Positions 51,089 through 58,364 of a stretch of DNA of 64,000 nt are shown here, in pieces. The stretch lies in assembly GCF_030013205.1 (NCBI RefSeq), contig NZ_CP122648.1. One strand, given 5' to 3'. Source of the stretch: Escherichia coli (GTDB lineage: Bacteria; Pseudomonadota; Gammaproteobacteria; Enterobacterales; Enterobacteriaceae). The position numbers and the translations under genes were made by a program. Under the pieces are notes generated by a model. The model ran no database searches. It was not told where the DNA came from and saw only the letters and a program-made list of their open reading frames with translations. Each line of letters begins with the position of its first letter. Positions within the stretch are counted from its first letter, which is position 1.

Positions 51089-51575
<487 letters not shown>

Positions 51576-51874: not shown

Positions 51875-52189
51875 TTATTTTATTTTATTTGCAGTTTCAA
51901 TGCAATCAGCGGCAAGTTGGTGTGAATTTAGATTTTTCAGATATGGTCTTATGATCTTTCCCTTACTTAATAAATAGCATGTATAGGATTCGTAAAGTCC
52001 AGCATCTATTTTGTACCTCATTATATTAGATAAGGATGTGAGAAATTCCTTGTTATCATTCGCAGTCATATATGCCAGTCCGAGTTCAGCCTCTGCGGCC
52101 TTACAGGAAAAATAGCTAAGTGAACACGCTTTTCGTCCCTCTTTAGTACTGGCTGATATTAGTGCCCATAATATTGCTTTGTCTGCCAA
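51875..52189 (-). CDS. hypothetical small protein downstream of the orphan rhs C-terminal fragment (possible orphan immunity gene; TTG start)
   Basis: 104 aa ORF in AT-rich DNA; assigned on position only. Confidence 0.3.
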   Translation of the reverse strand: MADKAILWALISASTKEGRKACSLSYFSCKAAEAELGLAYMTANDNKEFLTSLSNIMRYKIDAGLYESYTCYLLSKGKIIRPYLKNLNSHQLAADCIETANKIK

Positions 52190-52277
52190 ATCTAACTCTC
52201 TCTGAAATTGTCTTGCAGTAAATGCACTCGCAGAAATAGAGAAAAAAATACAATTGTTAATAACTTTGCCATATTTT

Positions 52278-52870
52278 TTAGTCCGTAACTGTTAATGTGC
52301 TATCTGGCTCTGAAAATATTAACTCATTTAATTTTTGCATGTCATTAGATGAACCAGTTATACAACCCTCGGAACAGAATCGAGGTCCTAAAGACGGACC
52401 GAAAGCGTTTAAATAACTATGTATTGAAAATCCATTACGATTATAATTTCCTGTATTAACTGACGGTACTAATCGTATGCCGTCAGGTTTTCTATTGCTT
52501 GCTCCCGGGTCATTAACATTCCAACTCCACAGGCCTTGAGGTATTGGCCCTCTATTTATAAATGTGTACAACGGGGATTATTTTTACATTGCATATTATT
52601 ACCAGAAGCGACTGGAATACTAAGCACATCATAAAAATTATCATCACCTGGTATATCTGAAACACACGAAAGCATACCTAAAGTTATGCTGTATAAACAT
52701 GTGGCTAATCCCAAGGGGATCGATTCCAGAAATCGGGTTCAACGGATACTGATAAAAATTCCACCTACCTTCCAGCCCAATCGGAGCCTGAGTGTTATAC
52801 CGCCCCTGCTGCGGTTAATGTTACCGATAATAGTTATAGTACAGCCCTGATTCATCATCATACTACTGCT
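52278..52870 (-). pseudogene. orphan Rhs C-terminal fragment: core-end remnant with DPLGL motif plus divergent tip, apparently frameshifted
   Basis: Minus strand translates …[24 protein letters not shown]…; the DNA at 52700-52870 is a diverged copy of the main Rhs core 3' end at 54650-54810. Confidence 0.6.
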
Positions 52871-52895: not shown

Positions 52896-53363
52896 TTACG
52901 GATTCTCCTTATTCTTCCTTCTATCCATTCGCTTTAGCTTTAGCTTTTTGAGCTCTTGAAATTTGCTCTTTGCATCAATATTACCGTTATTTACAGCGAA
53001 TTCCATCCAATAAATAGCTTTATTCAAATTATAATATTCTGATAATATTGGATTTGTATCCGATAAAAAAACCCCATAATTAAACTGCGCTGTAACATTC
53101 CCCTGAGATGCTGATCTTTCTAAGTATTGCAATTGTTTGTAAATGTTATTTTTAGTAAAGCAGTAATATTGATATAGTCGAAATGATGCCTCTGAATCAC
53201 CATGTTGTGATTTATACTTCAGTTTCATCAACTTTTCTTCACTTAAATCATAGGTCATTGCTGTAGACCCCATCATACTTTCGTTTTGTTTTATTTTCAC
53301 ATCAGCACCATGCAATTGAAAAATAAAAGAGAAATAAAAAAATAGTAACAAGCATGCTTTCAT
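52896..53363 (-). CDS. signal-peptide-bearing Sel1-like repeat protein; candidate immunity protein for the Rhs C-terminal toxin
   Basis: 155 aa ORF; N-terminal MKACLLLFFYFSFIFQLHG looks like a signal peptide; Sel1-like segments (SASQGNVTAQFNYGVFL, AIYWMEFAVNNGNIDAK); starts 9 nt after the reconstructed Rhs stop. Confidence 0.5.
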   Translation of the reverse strand: MKACLLLFFYFSFIFQLHGADVKIKQNESMMGSTAMTYDLSEEKLMKLKYKSQHGDSEASFRLYQYYCFTKNNIYKQLQYLERSASQGNVTAQFNYGVFLSDTNPILSEYYNLNKAIYWMEFAVNNGNIDAKSKFQELKKLKLKRMDRRKNKENP

Positions 53364-53478
53364 ACATCTACAACCTATCTTATATCACTGGGTTTTTCTG
53401 GCGTACCTTGCATATTAGAAATGGGGTGCCCAGATGGCCCATATGTTATCCAATTACCAAGGTCTTTTGTTGTTATAG

Positions 53479-54246
53479 GGTAATGACTCCAACTTACTGA
53501 TAGTGTTTTATGTTCAGATAATGCCCGATGACCTTGTCATGCAGCTCCACCGATTTTGAGAACGACAGTGACTTCCGTCCCAGCCTTGCCAGATGTTGTC
53601 TCAGATTCAGGTTATGCCGCTCAATGCGCTGAGTATAACGCTTGCTGATAACGTGCAGCTTTCCCTTCAGGCGTGATTCATACAGCGGCCAGCCATCCGT
53701 CATCCATACCACGACCTCAAAGGCCGACAGCAGGCTCAGAAGACGCTCCAGTGTGGCCAGAGTGCGTTCACCGAAGACGTGCGCCACAACCGTCCTCCGC
53801 ATCCTGTCATACGCGTAAAACAGCCAGCGCTGACGTGATTTAGCACCGACGTAGCCCCACTGTTCGTCCATTTCAGCGCAGACAATCACATCACTGCCCG
53901 GTTGTATGCGCGAGGTTACCGACTGCGGCCTGAGTTTTTTAAGTGGCGGAAAATCGTGTTGAGGCCAACGCCAATAATGCGTGCACTGGCGCGACATCCG
54001 ACGCCATTCATGGCCATATCAATGATTTTCTGGTGCGTACCGGGCTGAGAGGCGGCGTAAGTGAACTGTAGTTGCCATGTTTTACGGCAGTGAGAGCAGA
54101 GATAGCGCTGATGTCCGGCGGTGCTTTTGCCGTTACGCACCACCCCGTCAGTAGCTGAACAGGAGGGACAGCTGATAGAAACAGAAGCCACTGGAGCACC
54201 TCAAAAACACCATCATACACTAAATCAGTAAGTTGGCAGCATCACC
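53479..54246 (-). mobile_element. insAB: IS1 insertion sequence, 768 bp, with insA (53916-54191) and insB (53494-53997), flanked by an 8-bp target-site duplication tgttatag
   Basis: InsA ([30 protein letters not shown]…) and InsB translations; terminal repeats ggtaatgactccaacttactgat and ggtgatgctgccaacttactgat; direct repeat tgttatag at 53471-53478 and 54247-54254. Confidence 0.9.
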
Positions 54247-57200
54247 TGTTATAGCCATTAGATCCTTATTTGAATTAAGGTTCGTTGGTGCTGTTAGCAC
54301 TGTATCCATTTTTAACTTACCATTAGTTCCTCGCCCCCACCACGTCCATAGCGTGTCAGGTCCTATTACATTTGTATGTAACTCTTTAGCTAATTGGCTA
54401 GCAAATGAATTTTGTCCTTTACCTGTATTACAAGAAAATAACCAAACTGTCATCCCATCTTTATAATTCCCATCAAATTTAATTAGATATGCTAGATCTT
54501 TAGCTGTCATGATACTGCGCGTTGCGGATTCAATAGATGTGGGGGTACCATGCCCCCCGATTGTGAAAACGCCTGGGATATTAATCTCATCAGCTACAGA
54601 ATGGATAAGATCACTTTCGGGGTATAAATTTATATCAACCAAACCTTGCGGATCTACATTTATGACCGGATTCAACGGATACTGATAAAAATTCCATCCC
54701 CCCTTCAGCCCAATCGGATCCTGAGTGATATACCGCCCCTGCAGCGGGTCATAATAGCGGTGGCGGTTGTAATACAGGCCGGACTCCTCATCATACTGCT
54801 GACCCGGCAGGCGGATGAGCTGCTGCAGCTGGTGCGGGTTCTCTTCATTCAGCAGGTTGCCCCACTCATCGTATTCTGCGTACCACGCTGTTGCCCCTTC
54901 CGTGCTGACAAGCGCCAGCGGCAGGCCGCGATGGTCGCAGTGGTACAGGTGGATTTTTCGCGCCGGCGTGTACACCGGGTCCATCTGGTTTTGTATCTGC
55001 TCCACCGTCAGGCCGCACGATGCCAGCCAGCGGCGGCTTTCCTCACTCACCCGGTCAGCCAGGATTTCACTTTCCAGCCGGTCGAGCATCTGCACCAGCA
55101 CCGGCGGGAACACCATACTGCCACCGTCTTCACCGCCGGACTGCTGAAGGGCATCCGCCAGGCTGCGGCGCTGCGTTTTCGCCAGCTCACCGGTGGCGGT
55201 TTCGACCCTGATGAGTGGCGTGAAGCTCCCCGGCTGATAAACCGTCTGGATGCGGGTTCTGTCGTTCTGTATCGTGGTCAGCCGGTCGCCGTCCCAGCCG
55301 TACCAGGTCACTTCCGGTTTCCGTGACAGCGACATCCAGCCCGTCAGGTCCCGTTCACGCCGCCACACCCGTTTTGCCACCCTGCGGCCCAGCGGGTTTC
55401 AACCAGCGGCTCTGCATATTGTGTCCGCGTGTAGTGCACCAGCCGGTGCCGGCTGTCGTAATGGTACCGGTGAGTCCGCTCATCATCCGTGCGGATAACC
55501 CCTTCCGGGATGAGGTCGGTTTTCTCCGTCAGCCTGCCGTGACGGTCATACCGGTAAAGATAGTGCGCGTCACGGGCGATACGGTTATCCGGCCACATGC
55601 TGAGGGTGCTGTCCGGGTGCAGCTCCGGGTCGGGCAGGCGGTTGCCCGCCGGGTCCGTGGCATACGGGATGCGGATATCCAGATTCGCTGCGGTGGTGTG
55701 GACGCCGGTCAGCCTGCCGGTGTCGCTGTAGCTGTAACTCCGGGTCTGGCGCGGGCTGCTGATGCGGATGAGTTCGCCGTTGTCGTTCCAGGTGTAATCG
55801 CGGTCATACTGCAGGCTGTTCAGGTGCTGGCTCTGTAACTGCCCGGCAGGGGTGTAAGCGGTGGTGAGTTCATAACGGCCGAAGCTGCGCAGCGTTTCCC
55901 GGTGCAGGCGGTCGCGGGTGTACTCCACCAGCGGTGTGTCGCCGAGTTTCATGCCTGACAGCCAGCCGCTGCCGTAGGTCAGCCATTCCACGGCGGGCAG
56001 GCTGTCCGGTATACAGCGGTTCGCCAGTCCCTGCGTGTTGTAAGCGTGTCTGGTTTCATGCTGCCAGAGCAGTGCTTCCGTCTGCGGATGATGCACCGTC
56101 TGGCGCTCACCGGTCAGGCGGCCTTTCTCATCATACCCGTAATGCACCGTCACCCGGTGGCCTTCGCTGAGATGGCTGATGCCTGTCAGCCAGCCGCGTT
56201 CGTCATACTGCCACTGCTCTGCAGGTTCACCCTTCACGGTGCGGTGAGTGAGGCGGTCTGCTTCGTCATAGTGCCAGTGGGTGACCAGCCCCTCATCCTC
56301 GCTGCGGATAAGTTTACCGGTCAGGTCGTGGTGATAACGCTGTGTGCGGCCGTCAAAGCCGGTTTCCTGTATCAGCCGGTCGAGTACATCGTAACGGAAG
56401 GTGGTGTGGCTGCCGTTTTCACTGGTCAGGCGGATGACCCGTCCGGCAGCATCGTATTCCATACTGCGCGTCAGACCGCCCTGTGTGGTACGGATGGCCT
56501 TTCCCCACGCATCGTACTGTGTCCCGTTTCTGCTGCCGTCCGGGGCAATGACGGCGGTCAGGTCACCGGCGGCGTTGTATTCATACCGCGTTTCATGGCC
56601 CTGCGTGTCTTTCACCGCAATTAACTGTCCACGGCTGTCGTATGCGCGGTACTGACTCAGCCCTTCCTCGCGGTGCACCGCCGTCACCTGACCAAAACGG
56701 TCATGGTCATAACGGGTTACATAACCGGAACAGTCAGTGACGGTCAGCAACTGACCGTAACGGCTCCATGTCATGGTTTTCCGGCTGCCGGTGGCATCTT
56801 CCGTTGCGCAGGGTAAGTCACTGTGTGGATTATCATAACGGTAGCGGGTGATATCGCCGTTGTGTGCGGTTTCCTGAATCAGACGGCCGGATTCATCATA
56901 TTTGCGGCGCAACTCCAGCCCGTCAGTCCCGGTGGCTGACGTTAACTGGTTGTGGTGGTTATAGTAAAATGCCGATGCCCTGCCATCCGGTGTGGTGATG
57001 CGCGTGATGAGTCCCGTCACCACATCCGGGCTGTACTCAGTCGTCCGGCCTGCGGCATCCGTCTGTGCCTTAAGCCCGCCCACCGCGTCAAACTGACTCT
57101 GCGTGACGCTGCCGTCCGCGTGTTCCTTTTTCACCACCCGCTTCAGCCCGCCTTCGCCCTGCGTGTGCAGCACTTCACGGCGGTCCAGACTGTCGGTGAT

Positions 57201-58364
57201 GGTGATGCGGTCTTTCTCATACTGATACGTGTAGCTTAAGCCTGCCGGGTTTAGCTGTTCTGTCACCCGCCCGTCGCTGTCGTAACGGTAACGGATTTCC
57301 GGCCGGCCCGTGTGACGGTGCGCCACCATCCGGCCCCGGTATTTATCATCGTAAGTAAAGCTGCGCACCTGTGTATTGCTGCGGTCATACACCGCCGCCA
57401 GTTCGCCGCGTGGCGTCCAGCCATAGCGCACCAGCGGCGCGGCAGGTAAATTCTCCGGGTATTCCGGGTCGTGCGTCAGCCACACGGCAGACAGACGGAT
57501 GCCGTTGTCCCGGCCATATTCGGTGTAACCCGGCAGGGTATCAGGAAAAGCGGACGGTTCCGTCCCGCCGGAAGAGGCCTGCTGCCGGGCTTCTTCTGCC
57601 CGCTGCGCCTGCGTGGTCAGTACCAGCCGGAAGTGACGCCCGGCACCATCCGTCACGCCGGTGATTTCGCCGCTGAATTCGCCGCCAGCCTCACGGTGAA
57701 ACGTCTGTGTGCGCCCGAAGCGGTCCACCAGCCCGGTCAGTACCCGGTACGGCGGCAGCGGCGCGGGCAGCACCTCATCCGCTTCCGGCACCCGCTCACA
57801 CCAGCCGAGCAGCCACCACGGCCCCTGCGGACTGTTTGTCGCCAGATAACGATGCGGACTTAAGCGGAGTTCTTCCGGCAGCGCCTGCCAGAGTGCGGCC
57901 AGCCGGTGACCTTCATCCAGTTTCAGGACACCGCCACGCACCAGCCAGAGTGATTCGCTGCGGCTGTAACCGTCCTCACCGGGAAACAGGTGCTCAAAAT
58001 ACAGGCTTCTGCCGCCGTTATCACTGAGTATCAGTGTGTTATCGCGCAGCTGTAAGCGGATATCCGCAGGCATTTTCCAGCCGGGGCCTAGGCTTCCCAC
58101 CGGCGCGGGCGTTTTTGTCCGGTAACTGCTGTAGGTGCGGGAGAGGATGAACGGCAGCGGGCCGGGCAGTGCAAGGTCTGTCTCGCCGGGAAGGACCTTC
58201 GCACCGAGCAGCGGATTGACCGGATGGCCGGACGTCACCCCGCCGGGGCACACCGAACAGGCCACGCCGGTGGGGGCACCAATACGTACCCCGGCTGAAC
58301 CCTGGACAATGCTACCGCCATACTGCGTCATGTCGCCCTGACGCGCCGCCGGTTTTCCGCTCAT
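54247..58364 (-). pseudogene. rhs: Rhs-family YD-repeat protein, disrupted twice: frame switch near 55391-55400 and IS1 insertion into the C-terminal tip
   Basis: N-terminus [44 protein letters not shown] repeats; frame A stops at 55344 while frame B carries [17 protein letters not shown]…DPQGL and the tip; the last 8 codons of the tip ORF are IS1 terminal-repeat sequence. Confidence 0.85.

Follow-up and report, generated by a model that had tools for sequence, protein, structure and literature searches.

What does the C-terminal tip of an Rhs protein do when the gene directly behind it codes for a protein with an export signal? The question is raised by a 64,000-nucleotide (nt) stretch of Escherichia coli DNA (contig NZ_CP122648.1), here called the window in its whole length, in which the tip of a broken rhs gene is followed by yibG, the gene of a Sel1-like protein of 155 amino acids (aa). 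A first-pass annotation of the window had put the two forward as a candidate periplasm-acting toxin/immunity pair, and such a pair is well supported computationally by the features that we computed, namely the anatomy of the locus, the fold of the tip, an invariant dyad, synteny, signal peptides and a predicted complex. The best overall explanation, to which we give a probability of roughly 0.6, is that the tip is an Rhs-borne clan-CD peptidase toxin acting in the periplasm, that YibG is its exported immunity protein, and that the toxin side has been inactivated in the window.

The interrupted tip and its reconstruction

All relevant features lie on the minus strand. Those that make up the rhs gene and its partner are the following.

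55344..58364, minus strand: N-terminal 1006 codons of the Rhs core (DUF6531 and YD/RHS repeats; NCBIfam, Pfam), cut by a frameshift
54640..55380, minus strand: C-terminal stretch of the Rhs core, read in the shifted frame; its last residues are the cleavage motif DPQGL (open reading frame (ORF) 54220..55380)
54247..54639, minus strand: 5' segment of the predicted toxin tip, residues 1 to about 130, with His30 and Cys70; its final 8 nt are the IS1 target duplication
53479..54246, minus strand: IS1, 768 bp, with insA/insB on the minus strand, interrupting the tip (inverted repeats, target duplication, RefSeq)
53375..53478, minus strand: 3' segment of the predicted toxin tip (...ITTKDLGNWITYGPSGHPISNMQGTPEKPSDIR) with the stop TAG at 53377-53375 (RefSeq 'hypothetical protein, missing N-terminus')
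52896..53363, minus strand: yibG, 155-aa Sel1-like repeat protein, predicted to be exported, candidate immunity protein

The Rhs core matched the NCBIfam model RHS_core NF041261 with 2073 bits over model positions 1-1006 of 1261, and in Pfam it matched DUF6531 and gave 10 RHS_repeat matches (E<=0.001). The tip begins directly after the conserved Rhs core motif PxxxxDPxGL, with DPQGL at 54654-54640, and at this junction the GC content drops from 0.62 in the core to 0.39-0.40 in the tip, with 0.31 in yibG. The IS1 copy is exactly 768 bp long, has canonical inverted repeats, and is bordered by an 8-bp direct repeat, TGTTATAG, at 53471-78 and 54247-54. Excising IS1 together with 8 bp regained a single ORF, and an excision with 9 bp gave none. 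The restored tip consists of 162 aa after DPQGL (VDINLYPES...PEKPSDIR), with V1 at 54639-54637 and the candidate catalytic residues His30 and Cys70 at 54552-50 and 54432-30, respectively. The first-pass annotation had reconstructed the tip in the same way, by removing IS1 and one copy of the duplication, and this procedure held; its length of about 170 aa is to be corrected to 162, and the stop that it placed near 53373 is the TAG at 53377-53375. The next ORF does follow the tip immediately, at a distance of 11 nt (start of yibG at 53363) and not 9 nt.

Two other strains have complete rhs genes of 1409 aa in which this module is the tip of a full-length Rhs protein: strain E30, at the rpmE/priA locus, and the O157:H7 strain 8368, at the rhsA locus. 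The reconstructed tip shows 0 nucleotide differences from either allele over 489 nt, and in both strains the same gene follows after the same 11-nt spacer. Because the intact alleles have an identical tip, the reconstruction is not an artefact. The same tip is found on differing rhs loci, which are rhsB-type in the window, rhsA in K-12 and O157, and rpmE/priA in E30. Comparison with the intact E30 allele also revealed a loss of 16 bp from the Rhs core near 55397 (...CTGGTTGAAA[--]C...GCTGGGCCGC), which shifts the frame so that the ORF stops at 55344. This second lesion had been missed in the first-pass annotation and is independent of IS1. The toxin gene in the window is dead twice, by the core deletion and by IS1 in the tip, and yibG is intact.

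With 100% identity, the window region matches the rhsB-type locus (nikR - rhs - ... - yhhJ/rbbA/yhiI) found in E. coli strains from swine, for example K_EC180. RefSeq labels the identical locus of K_EC180 as 'RHS element core protein, frameshifted', an IS1 family transposase, a short 'hypothetical protein' and 'yibG: sel1 repeat family protein'.

Fold and catalytic residues of the tip

Relatives of the tip were collected by a search of 1.84 billion representative proteins, from which a family alignment was then built. There are 562 such representative proteins at E<=1e-3. Word-index homologue searches returned enterobacterial relatives only. In newer RefSeq annotation the tip bears the label DUF8616. 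Among single-domain matches the domain ends at most 70 aa from the C-terminus in 146 of 150; an Rhs motif of the type DPxG[LW] stands just upstream in 73 of 117 matches, and 8 of the 10 sampled carriers have an Rhs-associated core. Two relatives (L017 and L019) are located directly behind VgrG/PAAR/DUF2169 genes.

In an alignment of 64 diverse members, His30 (in GGHG) and Cys70 (in FSCNTG) are the sole invariant columns, and these are the two residues that had earlier been read as a speculative hint at a Cys/His hydrolase. The AlphaFold2 model of the tip, made from the family alignment, has a mean predicted local distance difference test (pLDDT) of 92.3 and a predicted template modelling score (pTM) of 0.89. 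In this model GGH30G follows the beta-strand 24-28 and FSC70 follows the strand 64-68, giving the H-G and S-C arrangement, and the alpha/beta fold can be superposed on clan-CD enzymes. The top structural matches are all clan-CD peptidases, with Tce1 of Pseudomonas aeruginosa first and the cysteine protease domains (CPDs) of MARTX and TcdA after it. When the 64 relatives were scanned individually, Pfam DUF4347 was found in 5 and Peptidase_C80 in 1 (E<=1e-3), with weak matches to C13, CHAT and C25. The family profile aligned the H-G...S-C region with the catalytic H-G...A-C of legumain at a non-significant E=0.13. Matches in AFDB50 include proteins named 'Peptidase C80' and 'DUF4347' as well as YibJ of K-12 (P32109).

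From these results we assign the tip to clan CD, as a C80/DUF4347-like cysteine peptidase domain with a predicted His30-Cys70 dyad. The profile and structure-prediction searches that the first-pass annotation had proposed for both proteins led to this fold for the tip and to a Sel1-like repeat fold for the 155-aa protein, and no match of the tip to a nuclease was found. Since the tip is without a Pfam match of its own and few of its relatives match C80 or DUF4347, it is a sister family within the clan-CD fold and not a member of either Pfam family. Two other assignments were discarded. An alpha/beta-hydrolase lipase would need a GxSxG motif, which the tip lacks, and the fold matches are all clan CD; in an NlpC/P60 or papain-like amidase of the Tae type the order of the residues is not that of the tip, where His comes before Cys, and the fold differs. 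A 'C80' match in Stenotrophomonas found in the literature is only a cluster label.

The structural matches raise the possibility that the tip is an anti-eukaryotic effector, similar to Tce2 or to the MARTX/TcdA cysteine protease domains, which would depend on a host cofactor such as inositol hexakisphosphate (InsP6), with YibG having some other role. Its best structural matches are indeed Tce1 and InsP6-activated domains, and Tce2 is toxic to yeast (PMC13323088). We nevertheless consider this very improbable. Interbacterial toxins are marked by a dedicated small partner gene in tight linkage, and Tce1 and Tce2 have none. The C80 domains of MARTX (Vibrio cholerae RtxA, 3fzy) and of Clostridioides difficile TcdA/TcdB (3ho6) are internal, InsP6-activated, autoprocessing, host-directed and 216-251 aa long, whereas the tip is terminal, has 162 aa, is accompanied by an immunity protein and has no Pfam C80 match. 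With an isoelectric point of 5.7 and 13 lysines plus arginines the tip is acidic, and its size and acidity argue, as far as sequence properties go, against a basic InsP6 pocket. The domain also occurs in free-living soil and water taxa.

The family includes members of other architectures. Giant high-GC, actinobacterial-looking proteins of 3100-6800 aa (P0025, P0028, P0029, P0031, P0033, P0043) contain 3-5 internal copies of the domain, which are about 450 aa apart in P0028, and the N-terminus of P0025 resembles WXG/type VII secretion proteins; overall the giant actinobacterial proteins have 2-5 internal copies. By analogy with the Streptomyces repeat arrays described by Zhang, Aravind et al. 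2012 (PMC3482391), such copies are probably multi-site autoprocessing modules. In actinobacterial AFDB matches the domain stands upstream of pierisin-like, TNT or LT-A-like domains. Members of a non-Rhs subfamily (P0063, P0077, P0087, P0104, P0107 and others, 200-300 aa) have a conserved K/RLDFIP(V/K)EER segment before the domain. The context of P0063 is a 1.8-kb contig, and that of P0020 is a fragmented locus.

YibG and its pairing with the tip

YibG matched Pfam TPR_27 (E=3e-4) and Sel1 (E=0.5), both weakly, and is named 'sel1 repeat family protein' in RefSeq. Its model is a predicted Sel1-like repeat (SLR) fold of helical hairpin repeats. The N-terminus, MKACLLLFFYFSFIFQLHG, has Lys2 and then a 10-residue stretch with a mean Kyte-Doolittle hydropathy of 2.5, and we predict a signal peptide of approximately residues 1-19 (53363-53307). 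Signal peptides and lipoboxes were read throughout from hydropathy and motifs alone. By this reading 10 of 11 Gram-negative homologues of YibG, and all 8 enterobacterial ones checked, begin with a signal peptide or a lipobox; examples are the lipobox LVGC in L009 and textbook AXA sites in L005 (AMA/K) and L011 (SRA/E). The 155-aa protein had been called secreted-looking, and its own N-terminus and those of its relatives bear this out. We rejected a lipoprotein reading of 'MKAC', as its Cys, residue 4, precedes the hydrophobic core. A scan for promoters upstream of yibG returned nothing above chance. In P0189 of Salmonella enterica (264 aa) two YibG-like modules are fused in tandem behind a single signal peptide, which makes it a duplicated immunity protein.

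In order to compare the neighbourhood of the tip, all fetchable loci with a tip homologue were used: those of E. coli, Salmonella salamae, five metagenomic or metagenome-assembled loci, Zoogloeaceae, Luteimonas, Verrucomicrobia, two genomes with VgrG/PAAR context, and YD/Rhs orphan arrays of Streptococcus. A related-locus search with 8 closer sequences contributed 9 loci. In 12 of 13 independent loci from several phyla a YibG-like gene lies directly 3' of the tip homologue and starts 9-20 nt beyond the toxin stop, so that the co-occurrence of the two genes elsewhere, which the first-pass annotation had left to be checked, is the rule. Three of the 12 were counted after correction of the gene start or call (GTG as the start codon in L007, an ATG further upstream in L018, and in L016 an ORF that had not been called). 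The exception is L010, a 2.9-kb contig with a small membrane protein in place of the YibG-like gene. The YibG-like partners share the pattern GDxxAxxRLxxYY ... YWLxxAAxxG. The tips of these loci have 31% to 54% identity to that of E. coli, and because of these identities the synteny does not reflect recent shared ancestry of one cassette. We conclude that yibG is most likely the immunity partner of the tip.

A predicted complex points in the same direction. The tip, a 30-residue Gly/Ser linker and mature YibG were modelled as one chain with 12 paired rows in addition to unpaired rows, and the resulting model has a pTM of 0.84, with pLDDT above 93 in both domains and below 50 in the linker. Such a pTM with a disordered linker indicates, within the limits of a model, that the interface is confidently placed. 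The YibG segment SMMGS, which is otherwise unstructured and precedes the conserved STAMTYDL, becomes a beta-strand in this model, and the toxin strand 97-101 extends to 97-105. We put forward, tentatively and at somewhat under even odds, a clan-CD periplasmic antibacterial toxin that would be neutralised by a secreted three-repeat Sel1 protein whose N-terminal strand inserts like a pseudo-substrate.

These results also bear on a reading in which the domain is a processing (releasing) or otherwise non-toxic peptidase and yibG an unrelated periplasmic Sel1 gene that is its neighbour by chance. Such a role agrees with the 2-5 internal copies in giant actinobacterial proteins and with the copies upstream of pierisin-like, TNT and LT-A-like toxin domains described above, and according to Zhang et al. 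2012 (PMC3482391) most Tox-Caspase versions are releasing peptidases. In the rhs gene studied here and in the 146 of 150 single-domain relatives, the domain is the last in the protein, which leaves nothing downstream to release, and Rhs tips are cleaved by the core motif of the Rhs proteins themselves. An SLR gene follows the domain within 9-20 nt in 12 of 13 loci across phyla, and the fusion model is confident. We thus regard a releasing or non-toxic peptidase as improbable for the tip. The internal and upstream copies fit the 'releasing peptidase' role of PMC3482391, and the E. coli tip belongs to its class of proposed C-terminal toxins.

The two genes differ in how they vary. Nine E. coli alleles were compared, the window and L020, L021 and L023-L028. 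Over its 489 nt the tip has no synonymous difference and only 2 single-strain changes. In yibG there are 5-25 nt differences from the window allele, with at least as many nonsynonymous as synonymous codons and one two-codon indel (tip versus yibG, Fisher p=1e-6). In the flanks, the core has 7-13 differences per 280 nt and the downstream region 1-4 per 280 nt. A frozen toxin segment is thus found beside a polymorphic immunity gene.

Site of action, known relatives and distribution

From the computed features we infer delivery through a type VI secretion system (T6SS), proteolytic activity, a periplasmic site of action, the immunity function and the kind of substrate. An intact Rhs protein would be delivered by the T6SS, and self-cleavage at DPQGL would release the 162-aa C-terminal domain, a predicted cysteine peptidase of clan CD (caspase/legumain/gingipain, closest to peptidase C80 and DUF4347) that would use the His30-Cys70 dyad. 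YibG, a small Sel1-like repeat protein with a predicted Sec signal peptide, would be the cognate immunity protein and bind the toxin directly. Because YibG is exported, the toxin would most likely be active in the periplasm of Gram-negative targets, where it would cleave a peptide bond, either of an envelope protein or of the peptides of peptidoglycan. The step from a periplasmic immunity partner to an envelope-acting toxin, proposed earlier for this locus, is supported computationally by the exported homologues of YibG in 10 of 11 Gram-negative cases. Since yibG is intact while the toxin gene is dead twice, a strain with the window allele would keep its protection without the weapon.

Several points weigh against this explanation. 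The tip alone had no Pfam match even at E<=10 (in a library without DUF8616) and none in NCBIfam or among PDB sequences. The predicted cleavage site of YibG, LHG/AD, is not a textbook AXA site. An export signal is absent from the Streptococcus copies (L008, L012-L015) and from the partner in L019 (7605-7955; CP063166, betaproteobacterial-like, VgrG-DUF2169-PAAR-Rhs). The fusion model was made for the cognate pair only and judged by pTM, pLDDT and secondary structure. Tce1 and Tce2, the nearest studied relatives, are without an immunity gene, and expressing them is not toxic to E. coli; Tce2 is instead toxic to yeast (PMC13323088). Most sampled E. coli copies of the module are promoter-less orphans. 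In the literature we found no experimental work on yibG, yibJ or the pair.

The signal-less partners of Streptococcus and L019 imply that the family is not tied everywhere to an extracytoplasmic target, and the sequences suggest that the compartment may differ among lineages. They also favour the reading that the toxin/immunity pair is the same and the peptidase acts in the cytoplasm, in which case YibG would be anchored in the membrane by its N-terminal hydrophobic segment, or would catch the toxin on its way across the periplasm. Most Rhs tips act in the cytoplasm, and Cpe1, the one interbacterial cysteine protease toxin that has been characterised, has the cytoplasmic proteins GyrB and ParE as its substrates (PMC12136450). 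Against a cytoplasmic peptidase stand the signal peptides of 10 of 11 Gram-negative immunity homologues, including lipobox and AXA sites, and the observation that Tce1 and Tce2 expressed in the cytoplasm are harmless to E. coli (PMC13323088). We consider a cytoplasmic site unlikely for the E. coli pair and retain the periplasmic toxin with exported YibG as the preferred explanation.

The nearest solved or studied relatives of the tip, Tce1 (PA0256) and Tce2 (PA2372), belong to the H3-T6SS of P. aeruginosa as putative effectors of the cysteine protease type (PDB 9qpe; Nat Microbiol 2026, PMC13323088). Sequence identity is only 12%. Tce1 and Tce2 are Hcp-loaded cargo and not Rhs tips, whereas the E. 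coli tip has a conserved exported partner. The Tox-Caspase class of PMC3482391 comprises caspase-like H/C domains that are predicted to be releasing peptidases if internal and toxins if C-terminal; it covers gamma-proteobacteria, T6SS and Streptomyces repeat arrays, and this distribution agrees with that of the tip family. The immunity families given there for Tox-Caspase are Imm36 and Imm57, with no Sel1-like protein, and no compartment is assigned.

The same gene pair was treated in silico as RhsA/RhsAI (z5018) of the enterohaemorrhagic E. coli strain EDL933 (Front Cell Infect Microbiol 2020, PMC7216683). There, C. difficile toxin A was the model for the C-terminus (template modelling score 0.73), and z5018 was described as a TPR/Sel1 putative immunity protein and compared with PA5087/PA5088. 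That work inferred GTPase inhibition or phosphatase activity, and the protease dyad, the signal peptide, the cross-phylum synteny and the identity with yibJ/yibG of K-12 are not in it. Tli5b (PA5086-PA5088) are Sel1-like repeat proteins that confer immunity to PldB, a T6SS phospholipase D; they are larger than YibG, their toxin is a phospholipase and not a peptidase, and there is no demonstrated likeness in sequence. Cpe1/Cpi1 of E. coli (PLoS Biol 2025, PMC12136450), a cysteine protease toxin delivered by T6SS or contact-dependent inhibition with a binding-type immunity protein, is similar to the tip and YibG in combining a cysteine protease toxin with an immunity protein. It differs in that Cpe1 has a papain-like fold, a catalytic triad and cytoplasmic substrates (GyrB, ParE), with a cytoplasmic immunity protein.

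The reconstructed DNA of tip and yibG was found at coverage of at least 80% in 3428 of 5426 complete E. coli genomes (about 63%), always on the chromosome. In an even-step sample of 40 of these rows, the copy belonged to a full gene annotated 'RHS element core protein' in 6, and 2 of the 40 had IS1. K-12-like strains have an orphan yibJ-yibG downstream of rhsA-yibA (strain 6A, L021 7490-8446). In K-12 yibJ a CAA to TAA change at tip codon 82 (Q82 stop) lies after the catalytic Cys, and YibJ (P32109) corresponds to the first 80 tip residues. Both K-12 and B strains retain an intact yibG, and for this reason common laboratory hosts would be immune in toxicity assays.

K-12, B and O157:H7 are thus among the complete E. 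coli genomes, about 63% of the total, that have the module, and neither gene has an assigned function. If our explanation is right, yibG would be retained for immunity by strains in which the toxin was lost or never expressed, and yibJ would be a truncated clan-CD peptidase toxin, so that two genes of the K-12 y-ome would gain a function. The chromosomal yibG would then mask toxicity screens of the domain in K-12 or BL21. The tip would also be the first characterised periplasm-acting clan-CD toxin, adding a protease class and a compartment to the T6SS/Rhs antibacterial toxins and opening a search for envelope substrates. The pair itself is common, already annotated and noted in silico in 2020, and Tox-Caspase toxins were predicted in 2012; it is an uncharacterised Rhs tip with an immunity gene, of the Tox-Caspase type, and no new kind of system. 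The main value lies in giving two widespread E. coli genes a concrete function that can be tested, and in a candidate periplasm-acting clan-CD toxin.

Further downstream, RefSeq annotates in K_EC180 an Rhs core remnant, a frameshifted Imm57 gene and an ISAs1 transposase fragment. The corresponding features of the window are the following.

52278..52860, minus strand: orphan Rhs core end with stop codons, DPLGL and a frameshifted Tlde1/YkuD-like tip (three-frame translation, Pfam, RefSeq pseudogene)
51875..52262, minus strand: frameshifted Imm57-family gene with an N-terminal signal-like segment (translation; RefSeq 'Imm57 family immunity protein, frameshifted; internal stop')
51141-51575, minus strand: ISAs1-family (H-repeat) transposase fragment without its C-terminus, the distal end of the rhs element, adjoining yhhJ (RefSeq, identical locus)

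The orphan tip downstream of yibG matched Pfam Tlde1_dom (E=3.9e-4) and YkuD (E=6e-3), which are of the L,D-transpeptidase type, and the Imm57-family gene is the predicted immunity partner of this Tlde1-like tip. This Tlde1/Imm57 cassette is a separate module, apart from the pair of tip and yibG. Its proximity may explain the gamma-proteobacterial Imm57 link in PMC3482391, a suggestion of ours. Other strains have the same order of yibG, orphan tip and Imm57, at three different rhs loci.

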